Source: Escherichia coli (GTDB lineage Bacteria > Pseudomonadota > Gammaproteobacteria > Enterobacterales > Enterobacteriaceae). Taken from it: 64,000 nucleotides of DNA. Below, in pieces: positions 1 through 57,951 of this stretch. The stretch lies in the NCBI RefSeq assembly GCF_051903065.1, contig NZ_CP178438.1; one strand, 5' to 3'. Both the position numbers and the translations under genes were made by a program. Below the pieces are notes generated by a model. It searched no databases and was not told the origin of the DNA. It worked only from the letters and a program-made list of their open reading frames with translations. How positions within the stretch are numbered: the stretch's first letter is position 1; every line of letters begins with the position of its first letter.

Positions 1-415
1 CAATGTTTACAGCAAACCGCCGGTGAACATTCGCGCGCGTTTTGACGATCGCGGCGATCTGAGCTTTATGCAACGTGAATCCGATGGGGAAAAGCAGCAG
101 CTTTCTAACGACCAAATCGATTTATACCGTTATCGTGCTGATCAGATCCGCCAGATTAGCGATGCCTTACGTCAGGGGAGAGTCGTGCTGCGCCAGGGGC
201 GCTGGCATGCGATGGAACAGACCGTGACCACCTGCGAAGGGCAAACCATTAAACCTGATTTAGATTCGCAGGCGATAGCGCATATCGAGCGCCGCCAGAG
301 CCGCTCTTCTGTTGATGTCAGCGTGGCATGGCTGGAAGCGCCCGAAGGTTCGCAATTACTGTTAGTGGCAAACTCTGATTTCTGTCGCTGGCAACCCAAC
401 GAGAAAACGTTCTGA
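1..415 (+). CDS. yjaH: C-terminal part of DUF1481 protein YjaH (5' end lies outside the window)
   Basis: Open frame running from the window edge to the stop at 415; position upstream of zraP matches the K-12 order hupA-yjaH-zraP. Identity by synteny, not by confident sequence recall. Confidence 0.55.
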   Translation, partial: NVYSKPPVNIRARFDDRGDLSFMQRESDGEKQQLSNDQIDLYRYRADQIRQISDALRQGRVVLRQGRWHAMEQTVTTCEGQTIKPDLDSQAIAHIERRQSRSSVDVSVAWLEAPEGSQLLLVANSDFCRWQPNEKTF

Positions 416-416
416 T

Positions 417-842
417 TTACCAGTGGCCCATCCCCATATGACCGCCACCACCGCAGCCGCCGTAGCCCATGCCCATTCCGGCTCCGCGCGGAATACCCGC
501 TTCAGCCATCGCAATATCCCGTTTCACCCGTAACTCATCTAACGACTGACGCAAATTCTCCATCTCTTTGGCGACCGCGTTAATTTTGCTGCTATCCGGT
601 GGGTTCGCGGCTAACAGGGCATTGTATTCATAACGCTTCGTCACTAGTTGCTGTTGCAGTGCGCTGCTTTGAGCGTAAAAGTCATTATGGATTTTCTGCC
701 ACGCTGTCTGTTGTTCGCTGGTCAAAGGCGCGGCATTTTGCTGCCACATACCGTGTCCGCCGTGAGCAAATGCAGATGTCGATCCCATCGCCATTGCTGA
801 AAGCGCCATCATCACCAGGGCAATTTTCGTGTTCCGTTTCAT
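417..842 (-). CDS. zraP: Zinc-resistance-associated periplasmic protein ZraP
   Basis: 141-aa product starting MKRNTKIALVMMALSAMAMG (signal peptide) with a Gly/Met/His-rich C-terminus; start codon is CAT at 840-842 on the plus strand; divergent from zraS. Confidence 0.9.
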   Translation of the reverse strand: MKRNTKIALVMMALSAMAMGSTSAFAHGGHGMWQQNAAPLTSEQQTAWQKIHNDFYAQSSALQQQLVTKRYEYNALLAANPPDSSKINAVAKEMENLRQSLDELRVKRDIAMAEAGIPRGAGMGMGYGGCGGGGHMGMGHW

Positions 843-877
843 GGTTAATCCTCCAGTGGTTGTCTTACTTCGGGTAT

Positions 878-893
878 TGCATCTTCCGTGCCA
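878..893 (-). promoter_or_regulatory. Sigma-54 (-24/-12) promoter of zraP
   Basis: Reverse complement reads TGGCACGGAAGATGCA, with GG and GC at the canonical -24/-12 spacing. Confidence 0.6.
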
Positions 894-948
894 ACGATGA
901 AACGCTGATATGACGGGTAATCTGGCATGATAAACGAGTAAAAATGAC

Positions 949-992
949 TCGCCTGCTGCGGGTAGCGAGTCATTTTTACTCATTGAAACTTA
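949..992. promoter_or_regulatory. ZraR enhancer-binding palindrome between the divergent zraP and zraS promoters
   Basis: Near-perfect inverted repeat gagtaaaaatgactcgc ... gcgagtcatttttactc, centred between the two sigma-54 promoters. Confidence 0.6.
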
Positions 993-1032
993 AGCCTTTG
1001 TGTTACAGCGCAGGGTAAGCGCTGATAAAAGA

Positions 1033-1047
1033 TGGCATGATTTCTGC
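1033..1047 (+). promoter_or_regulatory. Sigma-54 (-24/-12) promoter of zraSR
   Basis: TGGCATGATTTCTGC, with GG and GC at the canonical spacing, about 35 bp upstream of the zraS start. Confidence 0.6.
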
Positions 1048-1079
1048 TGTCAGAAAGGGATGAGCAGGCAAAGAAGAAG

Positions 1080-2456
1080 ATGCGTTTTATGCAACGTTCT
1101 AAAGACTCCTTAGCTAAATGGTTAAGCGCGATCCTCCCCGTGGTCATTGTTGGGCTGGTAGGGTTGTTTGCGGTGACGGTGATTCGCGATTATGGGCGCG
1201 AGACTGCCGCTGCCAGACAAACGCTGCTGGAAAAAGGCAGTGTACTTATTCGTGCTCTCGAATCCGGCTCGCGCGTCGGCATGGGGATGCGCATGCATCA
1301 TGCGCAGCAGCAGGCCTTACTGGAAGAAATGGCCGGGCAGCCTGGAGTACGTTGGTTTGCGGTCACGGATGAACAAGGAACAATCGTGATGCATAGCAAC
1401 TCCGGCATGGTGGGAAAACAGCTTTATTCCCCGCAGGAAATGCAGCAGTTACATCCGGGAGATGAAGAAGTGTGGCGGCGGATCGATAGCGCAGACGGTG
1501 AGCCTGTTCTGGAAATTTATCGCCAGTTTCAACCGATGTTTGCTGCTGGAATGCACCGGATGCGCCATATGCAGCAGTATGCCGCGACACCACAAGCAAT
1601 TTTCATCGCTTTCGACGCCAGTAATATTGTGAGTGCCGAAGATCGTGAGCAGAGAAACACCCTGATTATCCTCTTCGCCCTGGCGACGGTCTTGCTGGCA
1701 AGCGTATTGTCATTCTTCTGGTATCGCCGCTATCTGCGCTCGCGCCAGCTTCTACAAGATGAAATGAAGCGCAAAGAGAAGCTGGTGGCGCTGGGGCATC
1801 TTGCGGCAGGCGTTGCCCACGAAATCCGTAACCCACTTTCCTCGATTAAAGGACTGGCGAAATACTTTGCCGAGCGCGCGCCTGCAGGGGGAGAAGCGCA
1901 TCAACTGGCGCAGGTGATGGCGAAAGAGGCCGACCGTTTAAACCGCGTGGTAAGCGAGTTGCTGGAACTGGTTAAGCCAACGCATCTGGCTTTGCAGGCG
2001 GTGGATCTCAACACGCTGATTAACCACTCATTACAGCTGGTAAGTCAGGATGCAAACAGCCGGGAGATCCAGTTACGCTTTACCGCCAACGACACATTAC
2101 CGGAAATTCAGGCCGACCCGGACAGGCTGACTCAGGTCCTGTTGAATCTCTATCTCAATGCTATTCAGGCGATTGGTCAGCATGGCGTGATTAGCGTGAC
2201 GGCCAGCGAAAGCGGCGCGGGCGTGAAAATCAGCGTTACCGACAGCGGTAAGGGAATTGCGGCAGATCAGCTTGATGCCATCTTCACTCCGTACTTCACC
2301 ACTAAAGCCGAAGGCACCGGACTGGGGCTGGCGGTCGTGCATAATATTGTTGAACAACACGGTGGTACAATTCAGGTCGCAAGCCAGGAGGGAAAAGGCT
2401 CAACGTTCACCCTCTGGCTTCCGGTCAATATTACGCGTAAGGACCCACAAGGATGA
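1080..2456 (+). CDS. zraS: Sensor histidine kinase ZraS
   Basis: 458-aa ORF with an N-terminal transmembrane segment, H-box HEIRNPL and ATPase G-boxes (DSGKGI, GTGLGL); the stop overlaps the zraR start. Confidence 0.9.
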   Translation: MRFMQRSKDSLAKWLSAILPVVIVGLVGLFAVTVIRDYGRETAAARQTLLEKGSVLIRALESGSRVGMGMRMHHAQQQALLEEMAGQPGVRWFAVTDEQGTIVMHSNSGMVGKQLYSPQEMQQLHPGDEEVWRRIDSADGEPVLEIYRQFQPMFAAGMHRMRHMQQYAATPQAIFIAFDASNIVSAEDREQRNTLIILFALATVLLASVLSFFWYRRYLRSRQLLQDEMKRKEKLVALGHLAAGVAHEIRNPLSSIKGLAKYFAERAPAGGEAHQLAQVMAKEADRLNRVVSELLELVKPTHLALQAVDLNTLINHSLQLVSQDANSREIQLRFTANDTLPEIQADPDRLTQVLLNLYLNAIQAIGQHGVISVTASESGAGVKISVTDSGKGIAADQLDAIFTPYFTTKAEGTGLGLAVVHNIVEQHGGTIQVASQEGKGSTFTLWLPVNITRKDPQG

Positions 2457-3778
2457 CGCACGATAATATCGATATTCTGGTGGTGGATGATGACATTAGC
2501 CACTGCACTATTTTGCAGGCTTTACTGCGCGGCTGGGGCTATAACGTCGCGCTGGCGAACAGCGGGCGACAGGCGCTGGAGCAGGTGCGGGAACAGGTTT
2601 TTGATCTTGTGCTTTGCGATGTGCGAATGGCGGAGATGGACGGCATCGCCACGCTGAAAGAGATCAAAGCGTTAAACCCGGCAATTCCGGTGCTGATTAT
2701 GACTGCGTACTCCAGCGTCGAGACGGCGGTAGAGGCACTGAAAACTGGGGCGCTGGATTATCTCATCAAGCCGCTGGATTTCGATAACCTACAGGCGACG
2801 CTGGAAAAGGCGCTCGCGCATACGCACAGTATTGATGCTGAAACACCTGCGGTGACTGCCAGCCAGTTCGGTATGGTCGGTAAAAGCCCGGCGATGCAAC
2901 ACCTGCTCAGTGAAATCGCCCTCGTCGCGCCATCGGAAGCCACGGTGCTGATCCACGGCGATTCCGGCACCGGTAAAGAGCTGGTCGCCAGGGCGATTCA
3001 CGCCAGTAGCGCACGTAGCGAAAAACCGCTGGTAACGCTCAACTGTGCGGCACTTAACGAATCCTTGCTGGAATCTGAATTGTTCGGTCACGAAAAAGGG
3101 GCGTTTACCGGAGCCGATAAACGCCGGGAAGGGCGCTTTGTTGAGGCGGACGGCGGCACGCTGTTTCTCGATGAAATTGGCGATATCTCGCCGATGATGC
3201 AGGTGCGTCTGCTGCGTGCGATTCAGGAGCGCGAAGTTCAGCGTGTCGGTAGCAACCAGACTATCTCGGTTGATGTCCGGCTGATTGCGGCGACCCATCG
3301 CGATCTTGCCGCAGAGGTGAATGCCGGGCGTTTTCGCCAGGATCTCTACTATCGCCTGAATGTGGTGGCGATTGAAGTACCATCGCTGCGGCAACGGCGG
3401 GAAGATATCCCTCTGCTGGCTGGCCATTTTCTTCAGCGCTTTGCCGAGCGTAATCGCAAGGCGGTAAAAGGCTTTACGCCACAGGCGATGGATTTGCTGA
3501 TCCACTACGACTGGCCGGGAAATATTCGTGAACTGGAAAACGCGGTGGAACGGGCGGTGGTGCTGCTGACCGGGGAATATATTTCCGAACGCGAGCTGCC
3601 GCTGGCGATTGCCGGTACGCCGATCCCGCTGGGGCAAAGTCAGGATATTCAGCCGCTGGTGGAAGTCGAAAAAGAAGTGATTCTGGCGGCACTGGAGAAA
3701 ACGGGCGGCAACAAAACCGAAGCCGCCCGTCAGTTAGGGATCACGCGCAAAACGCTATTGGCAAAACTGTCGCGTTAG
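2453..3778 (+). CDS. zraR: Sigma-54-dependent response regulator ZraR
   Basis: 441-aa ORF with receiver domain (VDDD...D), AAA+ sigma-54 activator motifs (GESGTGKE-like [14 protein letters not shown]) and a C-terminal HTH. Confidence 0.92.
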
Positions 3779-5064
3779 TTCTGCTCGCGTTCGATAGCGC
3801 GCCAGCCGATATCTTTCCGGCAGAAGCAGTCGTCCCAGTGAATATCGGTCATTAAGGCATAAGCGCGTTTCTGCGCTTCTGCCACGGTATGACCCAGCGC
3901 GGTGACGCACAGTACGCGCCCGCCGCTGGTCACTACCTGCTCGTTATCCGCCAGTTTCGTGCCCGCGTGGAACACTTTGCCGTCAGCCACTTCTTCCAGC
4001 GGCAGGCCGTGGATCACATCGCCGGTGCGGTAATCGCCCGGATATCCACCCGCAGCCATCACCACGCCGAGAGAAGCACGTTCATCCCACTCTGACGTTT
4101 TCTCGTCCAGTTTGCCTTCACAGGCCGCCAGGCAGAGCTCAACCAGATCGGACTTCATGCGCAGCATAATCGGCTGGGTTTCCGGATCGCCAAAGCGGCA
4201 GTTAAATTCAATAACCTTCGGATTGCCCTGTTTGTCGATCATCAGGCCCGCGTAGAGAAAACCGGTGTAGGTGTTGCCTTCCGCCGCCATGCCTTTCACG
4301 GTTGGCCAGATAATACGTTCCATGGTGCGCTGATGAACTTCATCGGTTACTACCGGCGCGGGGGAGTAAGCGCCCATCCCGCCCGTGTTTGGTCCGGTAT
4401 CTTTATCGCCTACGCGTTTGTGATCCTGGCTGGTAGCCATCGGCAGCACATGCTCGCCGTCCACCATCACGATAAAGCTCGCTTCTTCGCCATCGAGGAA
4501 CTCTTCGATAACGATGCGATGACCCGCGTCGCCAAAAGCGTTGCCCGCCAGCATATCGTGAACAGCCGCTTCCGCTTCTTCCAGCGTCATCGCCACGATA
4601 ACGCCTTTCCCGGCAGCCAGACCGTCCGCTTTAATGACGATTGGCGCGCCTTTCTCACGCAGATACGCCAGCGCAGGTTCTACCTCGGTGAAGTTCTGGT
4701 ATTCCGCCGTAGGGATCTTATGGCGGGCCAGGAAATCTTTGGTAAACGCTTTTGAGCCTTCCAGTTGGGCCGCACCTGCGGTTGGGCCGAAGATTTTCAG
4801 CCCGGCAGCGCGGAAGGTATCGACCACGCCTTTCACCAGCGGCGCTTCCGGGCCGACGATGGTCAGATCAATCTTTTCGTTTTGTGCGAAATCCAACAGC
4901 GCCGGGATATCGGTCACGCCGATAGCAACGTTTTGCAGCGCGGGTTCCAGCGCAGTGCCTGCATTACCCGGAGCAACAAAAACAGTCTCAACCAGCGGCG
5001 ACTGGGCCGCTTTCCAGGCCAGCGCGTGCTCGCGCCCGCCGTTACCAATCACTAATACTTTCAT
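3775..5064 (-). CDS. purD: Phosphoribosylamine-glycine ligase PurD
   Basis: 429-aa ORF starting MKVLVIGNGGREHALAWK (ATP-grasp); its stop overlaps the zraR stop by 4 bp. Confidence 0.95.
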   Translation of the reverse strand: MKVLVIGNGGREHALAWKAAQSPLVETVFVAPGNAGTALEPALQNVAIGVTDIPALLDFAQNEKIDLTIVGPEAPLVKGVVDTFRAAGLKIFGPTAGAAQLEGSKAFTKDFLARHKIPTAEYQNFTEVEPALAYLREKGAPIVIKADGLAAGKGVIVAMTLEEAEAAVHDMLAGNAFGDAGHRIVIEEFLDGEEASFIVMVDGEHVLPMATSQDHKRVGDKDTGPNTGGMGAYSPAPVVTDEVHQRTMERIIWPTVKGMAAEGNTYTGFLYAGLMIDKQGNPKVIEFNCRFGDPETQPIMLRMKSDLVELCLAACEGKLDEKTSEWDERASLGVVMAAGGYPGDYRTGDVIHGLPLEEVADGKVFHAGTKLADNEQVVTSGGRVLCVTALGHTVAEAQKRAYALMTDIHWDDCFCRKDIGWRAIEREQN

Positions 5065-12371: not shown

Positions 12372-13120
<749 letters not shown>

Positions 13121-13224
13121 ATCAGCATACTTGTCCTTAGCCTTCTGCAGTGACAGCTGGTAGTACAGCGTGCTTCTGGCCAGCCCTGCAGCCTTTAACA
13201 GGTCAGACTGGCAGTGTCCGCACT

Positions 13225-13746
13225 TCAGGTTCTGGATGACTTTCGTTTTTTCTCCAGCTCCTGGCGCTTTTTTTCCAGGAGATGCTCCTGCATGGCTTTC
13301 AGATATGCATTTTCTGCGCGAAGATAACGCAGCTCATTCTTCATCTCTTCCGGCGTCATGTTTGCCTCGTTTTCATGGGTATCATCAGAACGGGTCATGC
13401 TTTTCTCCTTCCTGCGCCTGATAAAGGCCTCATTACCAGATTTGCGGTAGCCTTTTATCCAGTTTTTAACCATGTTGTGGCTGGGAATGTTAAACCGGGC
13501 AGCTACCCGGGGTAGAGACTCAGAATGCCCGAGAGCATAAAGAACCACGCAAAGTTTATCTTCAGGAGAATAGCTACGCTTGTGTCTGCAATCCAGTGCC
13601 TGAGGACCGTGAAGAAGAAAAAGATTAATCCAGTGTGAGAGGCTGGTGTGAGAAAGTTGAAAGAGTTTTGCCGTAGAAATGATGCCTGCATGACCGGCCA
13701 GGTAATGATTTACAGCGGCAAGTTTTACTTCAAATGAATGTTTCAT
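13225..13746 (-). CDS. insJ: IS150 OrfA (InsJ), HTH DNA-binding protein
   Basis: Product MKHSFEVKLAAVNHYLAGHAGIISTAKLFQLSHTSLSHWINLF... matches IS150 InsJ as I recall it; a leucine-zipper-like C-terminus is typical of IS3 OrfA. Confidence 0.88.
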   Translation of the reverse strand: MKHSFEVKLAAVNHYLAGHAGIISTAKLFQLSHTSLSHWINLFLLHGPQALDCRHKRSYSPEDKLCVVLYALGHSESLPRVAARFNIPSHNMVKNWIKGYRKSGNEAFIRRRKEKSMTRSDDTHENEANMTPEEMKNELRYLRAENAYLKAMQEHLLEKKRQELEKKRKSSRT

Positions 13747-32743: not shown

Positions 32744-33568
32744 TCAGGACAGGAAGCCCAGCGCATTGCCGATAATCCCTAAGCCAAACAGGGCGAAAAT
32801 CAGCCATACCGGGTTAATTTTTTTGTTGAGCAGACGAACCATTAGTAGCGTCAGACCGAGCGCCAGCAAACCAGGGCAAAGTTGATCGAGAATGTTCTGC
32901 ACGGTCATGGTGACGGTGGAGCCATCAGCGGCATGCGTTTGTGAAACCACCAACGGTACGTTGATTGACGTCCATTTGGTGACCAGCACGCCCATCACAA
33001 ACAGTCCGAGAATCGACGCGCCTTCGGTGAGTTTTTGCAGCACATTCCCGCCCATATCGCTGACGATATTCACCCCTTTGCGAAAGCCGAGCTGTAGGCC
33101 ATACCACTTCATCGCCAGACGCACCGCGTTGAAAATAAAGAAGAACAGCCGCGGGCCGAGAATGTTGCCCGAAAGTGCCAGAGATGCGCCGAGCGCGGCG
33201 GTAATCGTGCGCAGCGTTCCCCAGACCAGTGGATCGCCAACCCCTGCCAACGGTCCCATCAGACCGACTTTGATGCCGTTAATGGTACCGTCATCAATTT
33301 CCGCGCCGTTGGCCCGCGCCTCTTCCATGGCGGCAGTGACGCCGATGACCGGGCCACATACGGCTGGCGTGGTATTGAAGAACACCAGGTGTCGCCTGAG
33401 CGCCGCAACCTGATCCTCTTTTAATGGGTAAAGTCGCTTGATGGCGGGGATCATGTCGTAGCAAAAACCCAGCCCGTGAATACGTTCAAAGTTAAAGGAC
33501 GCCTGTTGCAGGTTGGAGCGCAGAAACATGCTCACCAGATCGCCGCGTGTAATTTTTCTCTGTTCCAT
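32744..33568 (-). CDS. sorM: PTS sorbose-specific EIID component (mannose family)
   Basis: About 274 aa; MEQRKITRGDLVSMFLRSNLQQASFNFERIHGLGF is typical of ManZ-type IID proteins. Start could instead be the upstream Met at 33598. Confidence 0.8.
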   Translation of the reverse strand: MEQRKITRGDLVSMFLRSNLQQASFNFERIHGLGFCYDMIPAIKRLYPLKEDQVAALRRHLVFFNTTPAVCGPVIGVTAAMEEARANGAEIDDGTINGIKVGLMGPLAGVGDPLVWGTLRTITAALGASLALSGNILGPRLFFFIFNAVRLAMKWYGLQLGFRKGVNIVSDMGGNVLQKLTEGASILGLFVMGVLVTKWTSINVPLVVSQTHAADGSTVTMTVQNILDQLCPGLLALGLTLLMVRLLNKKINPVWLIFALFGLGIIGNALGFLS

Positions 33569-33578
33569 GATGGCTCCG

Positions 33579-34376
33579 TTAATCGTCAAGTTGGTCAAGG
33601 GCGGTGGAAGCGGGGGCCTGGAGTTGAGGTTCAGCTTTACGCCACTGTGGATTTAGCTGGATGTAGACCAGGGCCATGATCACGCCGACGCCACCGAACG
33701 CCAGCAGACTGAGATCGAGGTAGCCACCTGCGAGGAAACCGAGGAAAAAGAAAGGCATCAAATATTTCACGCCCATCATACGTAGCACCATGGCGTAACC
33801 GACCACCACGATAAAACCGCCAGCAATCTGTAGTCCTCGGGTCACAAATTCGGGAATGGCGTTTAACATATTGCTCACCATATCGGCGCTGACGAACAGC
33901 GAGACAATCAGTGCCGGAACAGCAACGCGCAGCGCCTGCACGCCAAGCGCGGAGACATGCAGAATATCGAGAGTGCGAAACCGTGCCTCTTCCGCTGCTT
34001 TATCCGCCGCGTGCTGGAACACTACGGTGATGGTACGTGCAAACACCGTCAGCACCTGGCCTGCCGCAGCCACAGGCAACGCGATGGCGATTCCGGTGGC
34101 GATGCTTTGCTGACCAACGATAACCAGAATGGCGGAGATTATGCTGGCGAGTGCAGAATCCGGAGATTGCGCCGCGCCGACGTTCATCCAGCCGAGAGCT
34201 ATCAATTCCAGCGTACCACCGAGTATTATTCCGGTTTTTAAATCACCGAGAATTAAACCAATCACCGTACAGGCAATTAACGGGCGATGAGTCTGGAATT
34301 CATCCAGCACGCTGCCCATTCCGGCAATACAGGAAAAAAGAAATATAGCAATAATTTGTAGGGTACTTATTTCCAT
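33579..34376 (-). CDS. sorA: PTS sorbose-specific EIIC component (mannose family)
   Basis: 265-aa polytopic membrane protein, ManY-like. Confidence 0.8.
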   Translation of the reverse strand: MEISTLQIIAIFLFSCIAGMGSVLDEFQTHRPLIACTVIGLILGDLKTGIILGGTLELIALGWMNVGAAQSPDSALASIISAILVIVGQQSIATGIAIALPVAAAGQVLTVFARTITVVFQHAADKAAEEARFRTLDILHVSALGVQALRVAVPALIVSLFVSADMVSNMLNAIPEFVTRGLQIAGGFIVVVGYAMVLRMMGVKYLMPFFFLGFLAGGYLDLSLLAFGGVGVIMALVYIQLNPQWRKAEPQLQAPASTALDQLDD

Positions 34377-34441
34377 GATTTGTCACCTTTTAAGTGTCGT
34401 CATCCCTGCCTGTTAAAGCATATGTACACAGGCGCTATTAT

Positions 34442-34936
34442 TTAATTTGCGATTAACTGTTCGTTTATTTTGTCGATAATATTGATTGAGGGATCTGACG
34501 CTACGACGCGTAAATCCAGTATGACGCCAAGATTATTTAACTCATGAAATGCGTTAATATCATCATCATCTAATGAAACCGCTTTGGTTAACTGTTTTTT
34601 ACCGGGCCGCCAGGCCATGCCGCCAATATTTAGGGTGCCTATTTTTACCCCCTGGCGAACCATCGCTAAGGCATCCTGTGGGCGAGTGAAAAGATAAAAA
34701 ACGGTTTCGTCCTGATATTGCGGGTTGTGATAAACCGCGACGGCTTTTTCAATATTGACCACGTTAACCTTCATTCCCGGTGGCGCAGCCTGACGCAATA
34801 ATGTCCGGCGAACTTCATCGTTATAAACTTCGTCATTGCAGATAATAATGCGCTGGGCGTTAGCCACTTTCGACCAGACGGTAGTGACCTGACCGTGGAT
34901 CAGGCGGTCATCAATGCGGGCGAGCGTAATGTTCAT
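34442..34936 (-). CDS. sorB: PTS sorbose-specific EIIB component
   Basis: 164 aa, MNITLARIDDRLIHGQVTT is the mannose-family IIB signature (phospho-His). Confidence 0.82.
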   Translation of the reverse strand: MNITLARIDDRLIHGQVTTVWSKVANAQRIIICNDEVYNDEVRRTLLRQAAPPGMKVNVVNIEKAVAVYHNPQYQDETVFYLFTRPQDALAMVRQGVKIGTLNIGGMAWRPGKKQLTKAVSLDDDDINAFHELNNLGVILDLRVVASDPSINIIDKINEQLIAN

Positions 34937-35343
34937 CAGAAATCCTCCTCTGTCGTTGCCAGTTGTTTCCAGACAACGCAGGTTTGCTTTGCGATTTGCG
35001 TCAGGTGTTCACACAGTTCATCAACATTCATGCTGTCCTGGTTATCAACCAGTTCGAGCGCCAGCGGCAGAGAAAGTCCGCTGATTACCCGCAGACGAGG
35101 ATTGCGCATCGCAAGCATCGCTGCCGCATTCCACGGGCTGCCGCACTGTAAATCCACGGCAATCAGCCACTCATCTTGATTGTGAATGCTTACTAACTTT
35201 TCCAGCTTTGCTACGATGTCTCCGGCGTTCTCGCCGGGCACAAATTCAACGGCTTCAACATTGGCGTTGCCGTAAACCATCTGAACCGATTCCAGCATGG
35301 CGCAAGCTAATTTGCCGTGGGCACAAAAAATGGCGTTGACCAT
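34936..35343 (-). CDS. sorF: PTS sorbose-specific EIIA component
   Basis: 135 aa, mannose-family IIA fold (MVNAIFCAHGKLA); its stop overlaps the sorB start. Confidence 0.8.
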   Translation of the reverse strand: MVNAIFCAHGKLACAMLESVQMVYGNANVEAVEFVPGENAGDIVAKLEKLVSIHNQDEWLIAVDLQCGSPWNAAAMLAMRNPRLRVISGLSLPLALELVDNQDSMNVDELCEHLTQIAKQTCVVWKQLATTEEDF

Positions 35344-35352
35344 AAAGCCTCC

Positions 35353-36159
35353 TTAGCCGCGCGTTTTGCCGCCCGCAATGTTAGTGGTTACTCCGGTGAT
35401 ATAGCTGGCGCGTTCAGACAGCAGATAACAAACAAAATCAGCGACTTCTGCTAATCTTCCGGCGCGCCCAATAGGAATGGCGTTTTTGGTATAGCCTTCA
35501 CGCAGCTGCTCGACGGTGATATTGCGCGTCCACGCCAGCGCTTCTTCATATTCCGGCGTGCGTAGCCCGGTTTTTTCCAGAATCCCCGGCGCGATACCGA
35601 CTACACGGATACCGTGTTTACCCAATTCTTTCGACCAGGATCGCGTGAAGCTATTAAGCGCGGCTTTGGTAGCGGCGTAACAGCTTTGTCCTTCTGAGCC
35701 TTCCAGCCCACTTTCTGAGGAAACATTCACAATCACGCCATCATGTTGTTTGACCATCTGTCGCGCCACCGCCTGCGACATCAGAAAAACGCCTTTCTGG
35801 TTGATATTGACCATTTTTTCGAATGCAGCTTCGTTGAGTTCATACTGCCCGGCAGGCGCTTTCTCATCGACCAGCAGACGCGGGAAATTGACCCCGGCGT
35901 TATTGACCAGACCGTCGATGCGACCAAAACGCTGGATAATTTCCGCTACCGTATGATTTACCTCTTTGGCGCTGGAAATATCGGTCGGCCAAAACTGATA
36001 GCCTTTATGAACTTCATATTGACCATCGCCACCGTGAATATCTACCATCTGTACGTTTGCGCCTTGTGCTAATAATTCCTCTACAATAGCCAGACCAATA
36101 CCGGATGCGCCGCCGGTGACGATAATGATTTTATCCTGCAAATTTAACCACGTTTGCAT
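35353..36159 (-). CDS. sorD: Sorbitol-6-phosphate 2-dehydrogenase (SDR family)
   Basis: 268 aa with SDR motifs TGGASGIG and YAATKAA. Confidence 0.8.
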   Translation of the reverse strand: MQTWLNLQDKIIIVTGGASGIGLAIVEELLAQGANVQMVDIHGGDGQYEVHKGYQFWPTDISSAKEVNHTVAEIIQRFGRIDGLVNNAGVNFPRLLVDEKAPAGQYELNEAAFEKMVNINQKGVFLMSQAVARQMVKQHDGVIVNVSSESGLEGSEGQSCYAATKAALNSFTRSWSKELGKHGIRVVGIAPGILEKTGLRTPEYEEALAWTRNITVEQLREGYTKNAIPIGRAGRLAEVADFVCYLLSERASYITGVTTNIAGGKTRG

Positions 36160-36228
36160 AACAGACTCCTGATTTTAGATAATAGGGACCCGCCGTAATT
36201 TTTATTACGGTAAACATCGGGAAGATTT

Positions 36229-37176
36229 TTATTTCAGTAATAGTTCAGCTGTGCTGCTATTCGTTACCAGACAATTAATATATTTTCCACGCAGTGCACC
36301 AATAATTCCGCTGTATTTTTCTTCACTCATGGCAATGCCAATGGAATATCGTGCCTGCTTTAATTTATTCATTTCGATAGAGAGTGTTTTTTCGCTCATA
36401 TTCGTTTCAACCATTGCGCCGTGAATATCAAAAAAGCGCGAGCAAATATCGCCAGCAACCTGGCGGGCATTCAGGTCGTCACTCTCTTCACCACCATAAA
36501 ACGCATGCCAGTTAGCGCCGTCGCGAATGGCCGGTGAGCCAATTCCCACCAGGGCGACATCCAGATTATCCCAGTAGGCAGAGATGGTTTTAAAGTGCTG
36601 AGACTGCATGATCCCATTACGAATTAATGGGTTATCCAGTAGAGCCGGAAAATCCGCGAGGTGCGATTCCCCTTTCAGCTTCGCTGCCGCGCTGTAGGTT
36701 AATGTGTTTACGTGATAGCGGCTTTCGAGTTTACCGGACGGTCCGCCAATAATTGGTACGCAGATTAACTGCCGCGATTGCCCCGCCTGCGGCAAGTTTT
36801 CAACCAGTGCGCTCACCGCGCGACCCCAGGAAAAACCGACAATATCGCCAGGCTCCAGCAAGCGATCCAGCAGTTGCGCGCCGTGTAACCCCATCATCGC
36901 CAGTTGAGTCTCTTCATCCTCATCATTTCCCGACACCACCACAACGTCTTTCAGGCCAAACTTTTGCTTCAGTTGCTGCTCCAGCCAGAGATTTTCGTTG
37001 TAGTCATAGTTGATGGCGATGGTGACAATTCCCTGATCGCGGCCTCGTTTAAGCAAGCGGCTGATGGTGGTGCGGTAAATACCCAGTTCGCGCGCGATTT
37101 GCGCCTGCGTCATATCCTGTTCGTAATAGAGTTGGGCAATCTTCACAATCAAACGGATATCGTCACTGTTTTCCAT
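36229..37176 (-). CDS. sorC: SorC-family transcriptional regulator of the sorbose operon
   Basis: About 315 aa from MENSDDIRLIVKIAQLYYEQDMTQAQIARELGIYRTTISRLL (HTH) plus sugar-binding domain; first gene of the cluster. Start chosen at the internal Met rather than the ORF-track Met at 37260. Confidence 0.8.
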   Translation of the reverse strand: MENSDDIRLIVKIAQLYYEQDMTQAQIARELGIYRTTISRLLKRGRDQGIVTIAINYDYNENLWLEQQLKQKFGLKDVVVVSGNDEDEETQLAMMGLHGAQLLDRLLEPGDIVGFSWGRAVSALVENLPQAGQSRQLICVPIIGGPSGKLESRYHVNTLTYSAAAKLKGESHLADFPALLDNPLIRNGIMQSQHFKTISAYWDNLDVALVGIGSPAIRDGANWHAFYGGEESDDLNARQVAGDICSRFFDIHGAMVETNMSEKTLSIEMNKLKQARYSIGIAMSEEKYSGIIGALRGKYINCLVTNSSTAELLLK

Positions 37177-37523: not shown

Positions 37524-38396
37524 ATGCTGCCCGACTCATCAGTCCGTTTAAATAAATACATCAGCGAAAGCGGAATTTGCTCACGCCGCGAAGCGGATCG
37601 CTATATCGAGCAAGGCAATGTGTTCCTTAATGGCAAGCGAGCCACCATTGGCGATCAGGTGAAACCCGGCGACGTTGTGAAAGTAAACGGTCAGTTGATT
37701 GAACCTCGGGAAGCCGAAGATTTGGTACTTATCGCCCTGAACAAGCCCGTCGGTATTGTCAGCACCACCGAAGATGGCGAGCGCGATAACATTGTCGATT
37801 TTGTTAACCACAGCAAACGCGTGTTCCCGATTGGCCGCCTGGATAAAGACTCCCAGGGGCTGATTTTCCTCACCAATCACGGCGATCTGGTGAATAAGAT
37901 CCTCCGTGCGGGTAACGATCATGAGAAAGAGTATCTGGTGACGGTCGATAAACCGATTACCGATGAATTTATTCGTGGTATGGGGGCGGGGGTGCCGATC
38001 CTCGGGACGGTGACTAAAAAGTGCAAAGTCAAAAAAGAAGCGCCGTTTGTCTTCCGCATTACCCTGGTGCAGGGGCTGAACCGTCAGATCCGGCGCATGT
38101 GCGAGCATTTCGGCTATGAAGTGAAAAAGCTGGAACGCACGCGCATCATGAACGTTAGCTTAAGCGGCATTCCGCTGGGGGAATGGCGCGATTTAACCGA
38201 CGATGAGTTAATCGACCTCTTTAAGCTCATTGAAAATTCCTCTTCCGAGGCAAAACCTAAAGCGAAGGCTAAACCGAAAACGGCGGGCATCAAACGCCCG
38301 GTGGTGAAGGTAGAAAAAACGGCGGAGAAAGGTGGCCGCCCGGCATCAAACGGCAAGCGTTTCGCCTCGCCGGGGCGGAAGAAAAAAGGTCGTTAA
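37524..38396 (+). CDS. rluF: 23S rRNA pseudouridine synthase RluF
   Basis: 290 aa with S4 domain ([21 protein letters not shown]) and RsuA-type catalytic motif ([10 protein letters not shown]). Confidence 0.92.
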
Positions 38397-38669
38397 TCAG
38401 CGTTTGCCGCGCGTCGACGTATTTGCCGACCAACTGAATGACGCTTCAGGATCCGGTTTATAAGCCTGCTTTTTCTTTAACTGGCGGGCTTTTTTCGCTT
38501 CAGCCTCACGCTCGACCATTAATTTATCGATGTACTCTTTCTTAATGCTGTTGGTTTCGGAGTTGGTCAGTACGCGACCATGCGCAATCCGCGCCCGATC
38601 CAGCAGTGTTTTAAGTTCACGCTGCTCGCGTTCAGTCATCTCTTTTTGGGTAATACGGGGGAGTGCCAT
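38397..38669 (-). CDS. yjbD: DUF3811 protein YjbD
   Basis: 90-aa ORF in the K-12 position between rluF and lysC; its stop abuts the rluF stop. Confidence 0.75.
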   Translation of the reverse strand: MALPRITQKEMTEREQRELKTLLDRARIAHGRVLTNSETNSIKKEYIDKLMVEREAEAKKARQLKKKQAYKPDPEASFSWSANTSTRGKR

Positions 38670-40795: not shown

Positions 40796-42445
40796 ATGAA
40801 AAACATCAATCCAACGCAGACCGCTGCCTGGCAGGCACTACAGAAACACTTCGATGAAATGAAAGACGTTACGATCGCCGATCTTTTTGCTAAAGACGGC
40901 GATCGTTTTTCTAAGTTCTCCGCAACCTTCGACGATCAGATGCTGGTGGATTACTCCAAAAACCGCATCACTGAAGAGACGCTGGCGAAATTACAAGATC
41001 TGGCGAAAGAGTGCGATCTGGCGGGCGCGATTAAGTCGATGTTCTCTGGCGAGAAGATCAACCGCACTGAAAACCGCGCCGTGCTGCACGTAGCGCTGCG
41101 TAACCGTAGCAATACCCCGATTCTGGTTGATGGCAAAGACGTAATGCCGGAAGTCAACGCGGTGCTGGAGAAGATGAAAACCTTCTCACAAGCGATTATC
41201 TCCGGTGAGTGGAAGGGTTATACCGGCAAAGCAATCACTGACGTAGTGAACATCGGGATCGGCGGTTCTGACCTCGGCCCGTACATGGTGACCGAAGCAC
41301 TGCGTCCGTACAAAAATCACCTGAACATGCACTTTGTTTCTAACGTCGATGGGACTCACATCGCGGAAGTGCTGAAAAAAGTAAACCCGGAAACCACGCT
41401 GTTCCTGGTAGCATCTAAAACCTTCACCACTCAGGAAACCATGACCAACGCCCATAGCGCGCGTGACTGGTTCCTGAAAGCGGCAGGTGATGAAAAACAC
41501 GTTGCGAAACACTTTGCGGCGCTCTCAACCAATGCCAAAGCCGTTGGCGAGTTTGGTATTGATACTGCCAACATGTTCGAGTTCTGGGACTGGGTCGGTG
41601 GCCGTTACTCTTTGTGGTCAGCGATTGGCCTGTCGATTGTTCTCTCCATCGGCTTTGATAACTTCGTTGAACTGCTTTCTGGCGCACACGCGATGGACAA
41701 GCATTTCTCCACCACGCCTGCCGAGAAAAACCTGCCTGTCCTGCTGGCGCTGATTGGCATCTGGTACAACAATTTCTTTGGTGCGGAAACTGAAGCGATT
41801 CTGCCGTATGACCAGTATATGCACCGTTTTGCGGCGTACTTCCAGCAGGGCAATATGGAGTCCAACGGTAAGTATGTTGACCGTAACGGTAACGTTGTGG
41901 ATTACCAGACTGGCCCGATTATCTGGGGTGAACCAGGCACTAACGGTCAGCACGCGTTCTACCAGCTGATCCACCAGGGAACCAAAATGGTACCGTGCGA
42001 TTTCATCGCTCCGGCTATCACCCATAACCCGCTCTCTGATCACCACCAGAAACTGCTGTCTAACTTCTTCGCCCAGACCGAAGCGCTGGCGTTTGGTAAA
42101 TCCCGCGAAGTGGTTGAGCAGGAATATCGCGATCAGGGTAAAGATCCGGCAACGCTTGACTACGTGGTGCCGTTCAAAGTGTTCGAAGGTAACCGCCCGA
42201 CCAACTCTATCCTGTTGCGCGAAATCACTCCGTTCAGCCTGGGTGCGTTGATTGCGCTGTATGAGCACAAAATCTTTACTCAGGGCGTGATCCTGAACAT
42301 CTTCACCTTCGACCAGTGGGGCGTGGAACTGGGTAAACAGCTGGCGAACCGTATTCTGCCAGAGCTGAAAGATGATAAAGAAATCAGCAGCCACGATAGC
42401 TCGACCAATGGTCTGATTAACCGCTATAAAGCGTGGCGCGGTTAA
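40796..42445 (+). CDS. pgi: Glucose-6-phosphate isomerase
   Basis: 549 aa from [34 protein letters not shown]. Confidence 0.96.
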
Positions 42446-46828: not shown

Positions 46829-47107
46829 TTAATGGCCTGTCGAGCCATCAGGAACGCAGTTCACCCCCGGTTTGCGATCTGGTGTGTAAAGGCGAAAACA
46901 TTCTGTCTTCCTGTCCGTCGATATCGGTTGCAGGTCTGGTTGCCTGAGCGACTGGGCCATCATTGGGCTGGAGACATTGCTTTGCGGTAGGTCGGCTTTA
47001 TCAGCAGTACCGAGCGGACCAGCATAAGCAGGAAGAACAGAGACTGATAACATCAAAGCAGCAAAATAAGGCTTCATTTTTACCACCTTTATCAGGTTAC
47101 GTTTCAT
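46829..47107 (-). CDS. yjbT: Small putative periplasmic protein YjbT
   Basis: 92-aa ORF; the internal Met (MKPYFAALMLSVSVLPAYA) gives a clean signal peptide, so the true start may be at 47077. Confidence 0.6.
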   Translation of the reverse strand: MKRNLIKVVKMKPYFAALMLSVSVLPAYAGPLGTADKADLPQSNVSSPMMAQSLRQPDLQPISTDRKTECFRLYTPDRKPGVNCVPDGSTGH

Positions 47108-57586: not shown

Positions 57587-57951
57587 TGCTTCATTCCAGG
57601 GATATGAGCGATTTTTTATAGTACTTCACTTCTTCTTCACTAAGAATATCCATTATCTCAATGCATTATCAGAGATTCTTTTCCTTTCGCCGGTAGTGTC
57701 TGGACGCTCAGGCTACTTTTTCCAGTTATTTCATTTCTGTAATGCAGAGGTTTTATGTTAGGTCATATCTCAAAGTTTGACGGCAATAACTCTTTGATAA
57801 AACATGGTGTGGTGCAAGGAAATAATATAGTAGATTTTGATTTACTACGTAATTTTAATGGGGTGCCAGGGTTAAATCGAGAAAACTTTATTTATATCAG
57901 CAATATTTTTTAAATATAAAACAACGGAACGAAAAAAATCATTCAATAAAT

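Follow-up and report, generated by a model that had tools for sequence, protein, structure and literature searches.

Compact tail-to-tail gene junctions in Escherichia coli, with probable termination signals inside the partner genes

The tightly spaced convergent gene ends in the stretch of Escherichia coli DNA analysed here (the window, 64,000 nucleotides of contig NZ_CP178438.1) are real and ordinary, and the arrangement they represent is already known. We consider it highly likely that they are compact tail-to-tail junctions of the E. coli core genome in which the termination signals sit inside the partner gene, that the overlaps fall in dispensable protein tails and at junctions made by gene gain, and that the complementary 3' transcript ends are a by-product of this compact layout and not a dedicated regulatory device, a role whose absence we infer. 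Antisense 3' overlap has already been published for two of the three pairs named in an earlier note on this DNA (zraR-purD and aceK-arpA) and also for yjaH-zraP. What appears mildly new is the synonymous-site evidence, drawn from sequence comparison, suggesting that a predicted rluF terminator is kept inside yjbD. The features are collected in Table 1.

Table 1. Features at the convergent gene ends, in window positions. Rho regions are from PMC7815308; their positions were transferred from K-12 and are approximate because they were reported in 800-nt windows.
Feature	Position	Strand	Details
yjaH, 3' part	2..415	+	ends 1 nt before the zraP end
zraP CDS	417..842	-	3' end faces yjaH
Rho region antisense to zraP	556	+	K-12 4201402; score 17.2
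zraR CDS	2453..3778	+	441 aa; stop TAG 3776-3778
Candidate purHD intrinsic terminator	3694..3730	-	antisense, within zraR codons; GC stem of 9-10 bp
TTAG tetramer common to zraR and purD	3775..3778		YTAR class of convergent 4-nt overlap
purD CDS	3775..5064	-	429 aa; stop TAA 3777..3775
Predicted zraSR read-through antisense to purD	3779..4044	+	would extend up to the Rho region
Rho region antisense to purD	4044	+	K-12 4204911; score 4.3
aceK CDS	18758..20494	+	578 aa; stop TGA
aceK/arpA 32-nt overlap	20463..20494		covers the variable AceK tail SVRYGEMLF-stop after the conserved ...RRRQRF
arpA 3' fragment (PGAP name espL4), pseudogene	20463..22002	-	ShET2/EspL2 family; stop TAA 20465..20463
Predicted aceBAK read-through antisense to arpA	20495..20561	+	would extend up to the Rho region
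Rho region antisense to arpA	20561	+	K-12 4220399; score 3.0
IS1 interrupting arpA	22003..22770	-	768 bp; 9-bp target duplication ACTAGCCCG at 21994-22002 and 22771-22779
rluF CDS	37524..38396	+	290 aa; stop TAA
Rho region antisense to rluF	38261	-	K-12 4231091; score 4.3
Weak yjbD terminator candidate	38382..38434	-	hairpin spans both stop codons
yjbD CDS	38397..38669	-	90 aa; DUF3811; stop TGA
Candidate rluF intrinsic terminator	38462..38500	+	antisense, within yjbD codons 57-70; hairpin 38462-38491
Rho region antisense to yjbD	38607	+	K-12 4231569; score 3.1

The earlier note had the stop codons of zraR and purD overlapping at 3775-3778, the 3' ends of aceK and arpA overlapping by about 32 bp and the stops of rluF and yjbD abutting at 38396/38397. 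ORF lists and the raw sequence reproduce all three: the aceK/arpA overlap is exactly 32 nt (20463-20494), the rluF/yjbD gap is 0, and zraR and purD share 4 nt between their reading frames and 2 nt between their stop codons. A fourth tight convergent junction, yjaH/zraP (415/417) with its 1-nt gap, had been overlooked. Mis-called stops, which the note had named as the way in which these positions could fail, are ruled out by direct re-translation, as all stops stand. The PGAP annotations of identical or near-identical E. coli genomes, among them that of the closest genome overall (strain 23CRST027), give the same gene ends, and the K-12 annotation does so for zraR/purD and aceK/arpA, that is for two of the three pairs, which again argues that the stops were called correctly; the zraR/purD stretch itself is 100% identical to several complete genomes. 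It is thus scarcely credible that the overlaps are annotation artefacts arising from mis-called stops or spurious ORFs. One fact does speak for such a reading, arpA being indeed not intact in the window, but the stop codons are read directly from the sequence, the protein lengths equal those of the K-12 reference proteins, the alignment of PurD across 80 species reaches its last residues, the ZraR C-terminus (LLAKLSR-stop) is conserved, YjbD has 90 aa in about ten genera, and in strain A16 and K-12, where ArpA is intact (728 aa), its stop is the same one.

Taking a convergent overlap as opposite-strand CDSs that share 3' nucleotides, zraR/purD and aceK/arpA both qualify, the second with the proviso that arpA is here an IS1-split pseudogene, while rluF/yjbD, which shares 0 nt and has a 132-bp gap in K-12, falls outside the definition. 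Of the four tetramers possible at such a junction (CTAA, TTAA, CTAG or TTAG), all named by Lillo and Krakauer in 2007 (PMC2174442), it is TTAG that occupies 3775-3778. For E. coli the same study gave a total of 58 such overlaps; of the 116 genes taking part in them, 23 had a predicted intrinsic terminator within the CDS of the partner. Compared with that class, the junctions studied here are alike in their shared 3' ends, in the TTAG tetramer, in a 32-nt overlap placed in variable tails and in terminators inside the partner CDS; nothing of substance differs, rluF/yjbD being a 0-nt abutment in E. coli.

Such junctions are frequent. With all window genes mapped, eight junctions between convergent CDSs were counted, the gaps being +1, -4, -32, +89, 0, +46, +43 and +154 nt, and at four of the eight the gap is at most 1 nt. 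In a comparison sample of five arbitrary 50-kb pieces of K-12 (250 kb), 8 of 40 CDS-CDS convergent pairs (20%) are as tight: four with 4-nt overlaps (zapC/ycbX, yccX/tusE, yfeH/ypeB and yqfG/yqfH), three with overlaps of 35-41 nt (sxy/yccS, cho/ves and nudG/ynjH) and one with zero gap (cueR/ybbJ), making seven overlaps and one abutment. Each type of junction named in the earlier note is common in K-12. The window does not differ significantly from the sample (binomial P 0.056; Fisher P 0.09), so its density of tight junctions is not exceptional, and the idea of an unusual clustering was rejected on the basis of these 40 pairs. Zero spacing of another kind is seen at 47107/47108, where a gene for a 'periplasmic protein' (minus strand) and one for a 47-aa 'hypothetical protein' (plus strand) stand back to back in the annotation; this leaves no room for promoters, and the 47-aa ORF may be spurious.

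Where do the transcripts end, then? The earlier note held that there was no room for terminators, and here it was wrong: a hairpin followed by a U-tract lies inside the partner gene for both purD and rluF, and Rho-dependent regions have been reported within partner genes in K-12. The built-in promoter/terminator scan of all three junctions returned terminator-like sites no more often than in shuffled sequence, and, since it allows loops of up to 8 nt only, the purD hairpin escaped it. Reading of the strands together with a relaxed hairpin-plus-U scan brought out candidate terminators for three of the six transcripts; the relaxed scan applied to the whole window is nonspecific on energy alone, 19 of its 29 hits at or below -18 kcal/mol lying within genes. 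Neither aceK nor zraR has significant structure just past its stop (aceK z -0.43), and the 11 Rfam matches in the window at gathering score include none at 3700-4050, 20400-20600 or 38250-38610. Elsewhere, the plus strand at 40871-40906, which is the sense strand of the pgi ORF, has a stem of 10 perfect base pairs (ACGATCGCCG/CGGCGATCGT) and then UUUUCU (-21.4 kcal/mol), about 75 nt into that reading frame; it may have arisen by chance or may be an element of the attenuator kind.

The candidate purHD terminator is a strong hairpin with a U-tract. Positions 3730..3722 pair with 3709..3701, followed by the tail UUUUCUCC; on the minus strand the element reads ACGGGCGGC-UUCGGUUUUGUU-GCCGCCCGU and then UUUCUCC, 45-74 nt past the purD stop. 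The hairpin has a predicted energy of -21.9 kcal/mol (z -5.1), and 0 of 200 shuffled sequences are as stable. Among 80 species loci zraR adjoins purD in only four, those of E. coli, E. albertii, Kluyvera and Citrobacter. The stem is intact in all four and identical between Escherichia, Kluyvera and Citrobacter, with the tail UUUUCUCC or UUUUUUC, and the -4 overlap is kept wherever it could be measured (E. coli, including a draft genome, Kluyvera and Citrobacter; E. albertii was left out of this count, as its ZraR match is split). In one E. coli variant the outermost stem pair becomes G-U, which pairs only on the purD-sense strand. The excess invariance of third codon positions in the zraR part of the stem is not significant (5/6 versus 15/34, P 0.09), owing to so little divergence. 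A Gly-Gly...Ala-Ala motif written in preferred codons tends towards self-complementarity. A literature search on the purHD terminator returned nothing relevant, and supplementary file 1 of Adams et al. (PMC7815308) holds no mapped 3' end of purHD at the predicted hairpin. The K-12 table of the same study lists no Rho region for purHD read-through into zraR, which fits with an intrinsic terminator without proving one.

The candidate rluF terminator inside yjbD is conserved between genera. It has the stem AAGCCUGC/GCGGGCUU, a 14-nt loop and a U-tract (given as U6 or UUUUCG), 95 nt past the rluF stop within yjbD codons 60-70, at -12.9 kcal/mol and z -2.95, and the U-G pair in the centre of the stem exists on the rluF-sense strand only. 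We gathered yjbD loci with rluF alongside from eight genera beyond Escherichia. The spacing of the two genes is -4 in the Salmonella and Klebsiella genomes examined, 0 in Enterobacter, Kosakonia, Trabulsiella, Pluralibacter and Leclercia, and +8 in Shimwellia, so that a spacing of 0 or -4 is found in eight genera overall. The hairpin with its U-tract is present in 11 of 11 rluF-adjacent sequences from nine genera. A covariation count is formally uninformative, with one compensatory change (A-U to G-C, in Klebsiella) and the remaining pairs invariant, and a third-position test was therefore used in its place. In yjbD there are 51 codons whose amino acid is both degenerate and invariant; only 6 of them keep an invariant third base, and these comprise all three stem codons (Ala61, Arg62 and Gln68) against 3 of the 48 elsewhere (hypergeometric P 0.00096). 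In Enterobacillus, the sole lineage found with yjbD away from rluF, Ala61 is GCG and not GCC, the stem is broken and the U-tract is lost. No mapped 3' end of rluF at the predicted hairpin was found in Adams supplementary file 1, which likewise has no entry for purD, zraR or yjbD-antisense 3' ends, and the TERMITe and SMRT-Cappable-seq supplements gave no matches for the 3' ends of purD, rluF or yjbD.

For yjbD itself the signal is less distinct. Most genera have a well-formed hairpin here, GGCGC-UGAUUA-GCGCC, with the two stop codons as its loop; it is followed by CUUUCUUUUU, which is the antisense of rluF Lys codons. In the window allele this hairpin is degraded. Shuffled sequence is just as stable (z -0.05 with the majority allele and -0.14 with the window allele), and the hairpin is thus a weak candidate only. 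We entertain tentatively, at somewhat less than even chances, that rluF and yjbD form a co-evolved, dual-coding module of the Enterobacteriaceae in which each terminator would be written in the codons of the other gene, that of rluF held by synonymous constraint on yjbD and that of yjbD made of the stop-codon loop and the U-tract from rluF Lys codons; the 132-bp insert would then split this module and supply a replacement 3' end.

The abutment itself is polymorphic. K-12 has a 132-bp insert at this place, as do 1773 of 5426 complete E. coli genomes; 3556 genomes give a single match over at least 80% of a 200-nt junction query; in the annotation of the three genomes without the insert that were examined, the gap is exactly zero in all three. 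The abutment is the ancestral state, lost by K-12. The K-12 insert (31227-31358 of the K-12 piece, corresponding to window 38396/38397) has imperfect terminal inverted repeats (AACGCCTCAGA...TCTCAGGCGTT) and a GC-rich hairpin (CCCCTCGCCCCTTCGGG...GGGTGAGGGG), and creates new stop codons for both rluF and yjbD; the mapped 3' end of K-12 yjbD (4231270, minus strand) lies within it. The rest of the window has no copy of the insert. The surrounding sequence is also unusual, in that 38024-38440 is strongly divergent from the majority E. coli allele in a patch centred on the junction, reaching 16% at 38324-38423; the differences are almost all synonymous, with two amino-acid changes in RluF, and only four genomes match the patch at 99% or more. 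It may be a recombination import. Upstream, between pepE and rluF, the window carries a sorbose PTS operon (31463-37176) that is absent from K-12.

Direct evidence on the RNA comes from K-12. Adams et al. 2021 (PMC7815308) used direct RNA-seq with and without bicyclomycin, and found read-through ratios of 3-17 upon bicyclomycin treatment at regions antisense to zraP, purD, arpA, yjbD and rluF. We transferred these regions to the window via equal gene lengths; in K-12 they lie downstream of the convergent partner's stop. All of the experimental evidence is from K-12, which at rluF/yjbD differs by the 132-bp insert. Overlap of the transcripts has likewise been catalogued: Conway 2014 (PMC4161252) reported that 276 of 370 convergent operons overlap, by 286 nt on average, and ExcludonFinder 2025 (PMC12288877), drawing on 58 MG1655 transcriptomes, lists 165 convergent overlaps that recur in at least 50% of them. 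The pairs yjaH-zraP, zraR-purD and aceK-arpA are on this list, and 146 of the 165 have predicted terminators in the neighbour's transcription unit. The pair rluF-yjbD is missing from this K-12 list on account of the K-12 132-bp spacer. The claim of the earlier note that each pair must produce mutually antisense 3' transcript ends thus holds in substance, given the published K-12 lists, but its 'must' is too strong for this strain, since arpA is disrupted by IS1, zraSR is conditionally expressed and the RNA evidence is all from K-12.

Taking sequence and comparison together, we propose that transcription of each gene would run beyond its stop codon into the partner and end there, by one of two routes. 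Intrinsic termination would operate for purHD, at the hairpin and U-tract in zraR, and for rluF, at the hairpin and U6 in yjbD, and possibly also for yjbD, with the two stop codons as the loop and the antisense of the rluF Lys codons as the U-tract. Rho-dependent termination within a few hundred nucleotides would operate for zraSR in purD, for aceBAK in arpA and for hupA-yjaH in zraP, and would also deal with read-through from rluF and yjbD. Transcripts ending inside the partner in this way would have complementary 3' ends of about 100-350 nt whenever both partners are transcribed.

Could these complementary ends be the purpose of the arrangement? If the pairs were functional excludons, expression of either partner would repress the other, via transcriptional interference or because RNase III cuts the double-stranded 3' ends; purHD, regulated by purines, and zraSR, induced by zinc, would be one such pair. 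The predicted complementary 3' transcript ends resemble those of published convergent overlaps (PMC4161252; PMC12288877), and three of the pairs have been named as excludons for K-12 from RNA-seq coverage, namely zraR-purD, aceK-arpA and yjaH-zraP; moreover, excludon pairs are more syntenic than other neighbours (PMC12288877), and the -4 geometry of zraR/purD and the 0/-4 geometry of rluF/yjbD persist across genera. However, this classification is one of coverage overlap only, and the papers report no reciprocal or mutually exclusive expression for these pairs; in E. coli, 5' (divergent) overlaps exceed 3' (convergent) ones about 38-fold in RNase III-derived double-stranded RNA; there is no evident functional link between the paired genes; and both the disruption of arpA by IS1 and the 132-bp insert between rluF and yjbD, the latter in a third of genomes, are tolerated. 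We therefore regard dedicated mutual repression as improbable.

A little less probable still, in our opinion, is the proposal that head-on collisions of RNA polymerases at a shared pausing hairpin, as in the bidirectional terminators of Ju 2019 and Wang 2022, replace separate signals at these junctions. It has been put forward for hundreds of E. coli convergent pairs (bioRxiv 10.1101/2022.10.23.513370, through which Ju 2019 is cited here), and there is a likeness, with a junction hairpin, which in most genera falls exactly on the rluF/yjbD stop codons, and predicted overlapping 3' ends. But the U-tract of the junction hairpin is one-sided and its energy is not above background, and about 95 nt separate it from the best rluF hairpin, which leaves the hairpins staggered, not shared. 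Unlike bidirectional terminators, the elements found here are offset by roughly 100 nt, have the U-tract on one strand and lie in coding sequence, and no single Rho-independent element serving both directions is seen. Read-through in K-12 is in addition sensitive to bicyclomycin at all of these junctions, whereas bidirectional terminators are described as Rho-independent. Expression of zraSR, arpA, rluF and yjbD is weak, at tens to about 100 reads per 800 nt (PMC7815308), for which reason collisions should be rare. Separate signals within each partner gene remain the reading that we prefer.

The history of the junctions is consistent with gene gain and with overlap in dispensable protein tails. 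AceK is conserved up to ...RRRQRF, beyond which different taxa have a tail of anything from about 2 to 25 residues, and it is this tail that the 32-nt overlap occupies. Homologues of arpA were found in E. coli only, and the arrangement with IS1 inside arpA is covered by only 15 of the 5426 complete E. coli genomes. In most other Enterobacterales, with at least 13 genera observed, purD faces yjaH directly as its convergent neighbour, across a spacer of 41-110 nt that contains hairpin and U-tract elements, so that in Escherichia, Citrobacter and Kluyvera zraP-zraSR sits between the two. From this comparison of gene order, the zraPSR module (417-3778) resembles an insertion that is closely joined, tail to tail, to the genes on either side.

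Several further features of these regions were observed. An IS3-family element, IS1397, lies at 12398-13746 beside a 5S rRNA gene. The window lacks yjaA, a gene that in K-12 stands between rrfE and yjaB; arpA and yjaA are both markers of the Clermont phylogroup PCR. A SopA-family gene at 57755-59334 is annotated as frameshifted in the closest genome. Within aceK, window positions ~19041-19125 are the counterpart of the K-12 ORF-internal small RNA AceK-int (b4830), whose 3' end in K-12 is set by an intrinsic terminator within that gene; of its published 61-nt 3'-end sequence the initial 40 nt match at 19075, and the full 61-mer has no exact match.

For the biology of E. coli the junctions as such matter little: the geometry of the gene ends is present in every E. 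coli annotation, overlaps and tetramers were described by 2007, Rho termination inside partner genes is in a 2021 table, and antisense 3' overlap is in a 2025 list. The useful corrections are that terminators do not need intergenic space, that arpA is here an IS1-disrupted pseudogene, and that the rluF/yjbD abutment is ancestral. If the reading of rluF and yjbD as a dual-coding module is true, the pair would provide a clean natural example of selection at synonymous sites for a terminator on the opposite strand.
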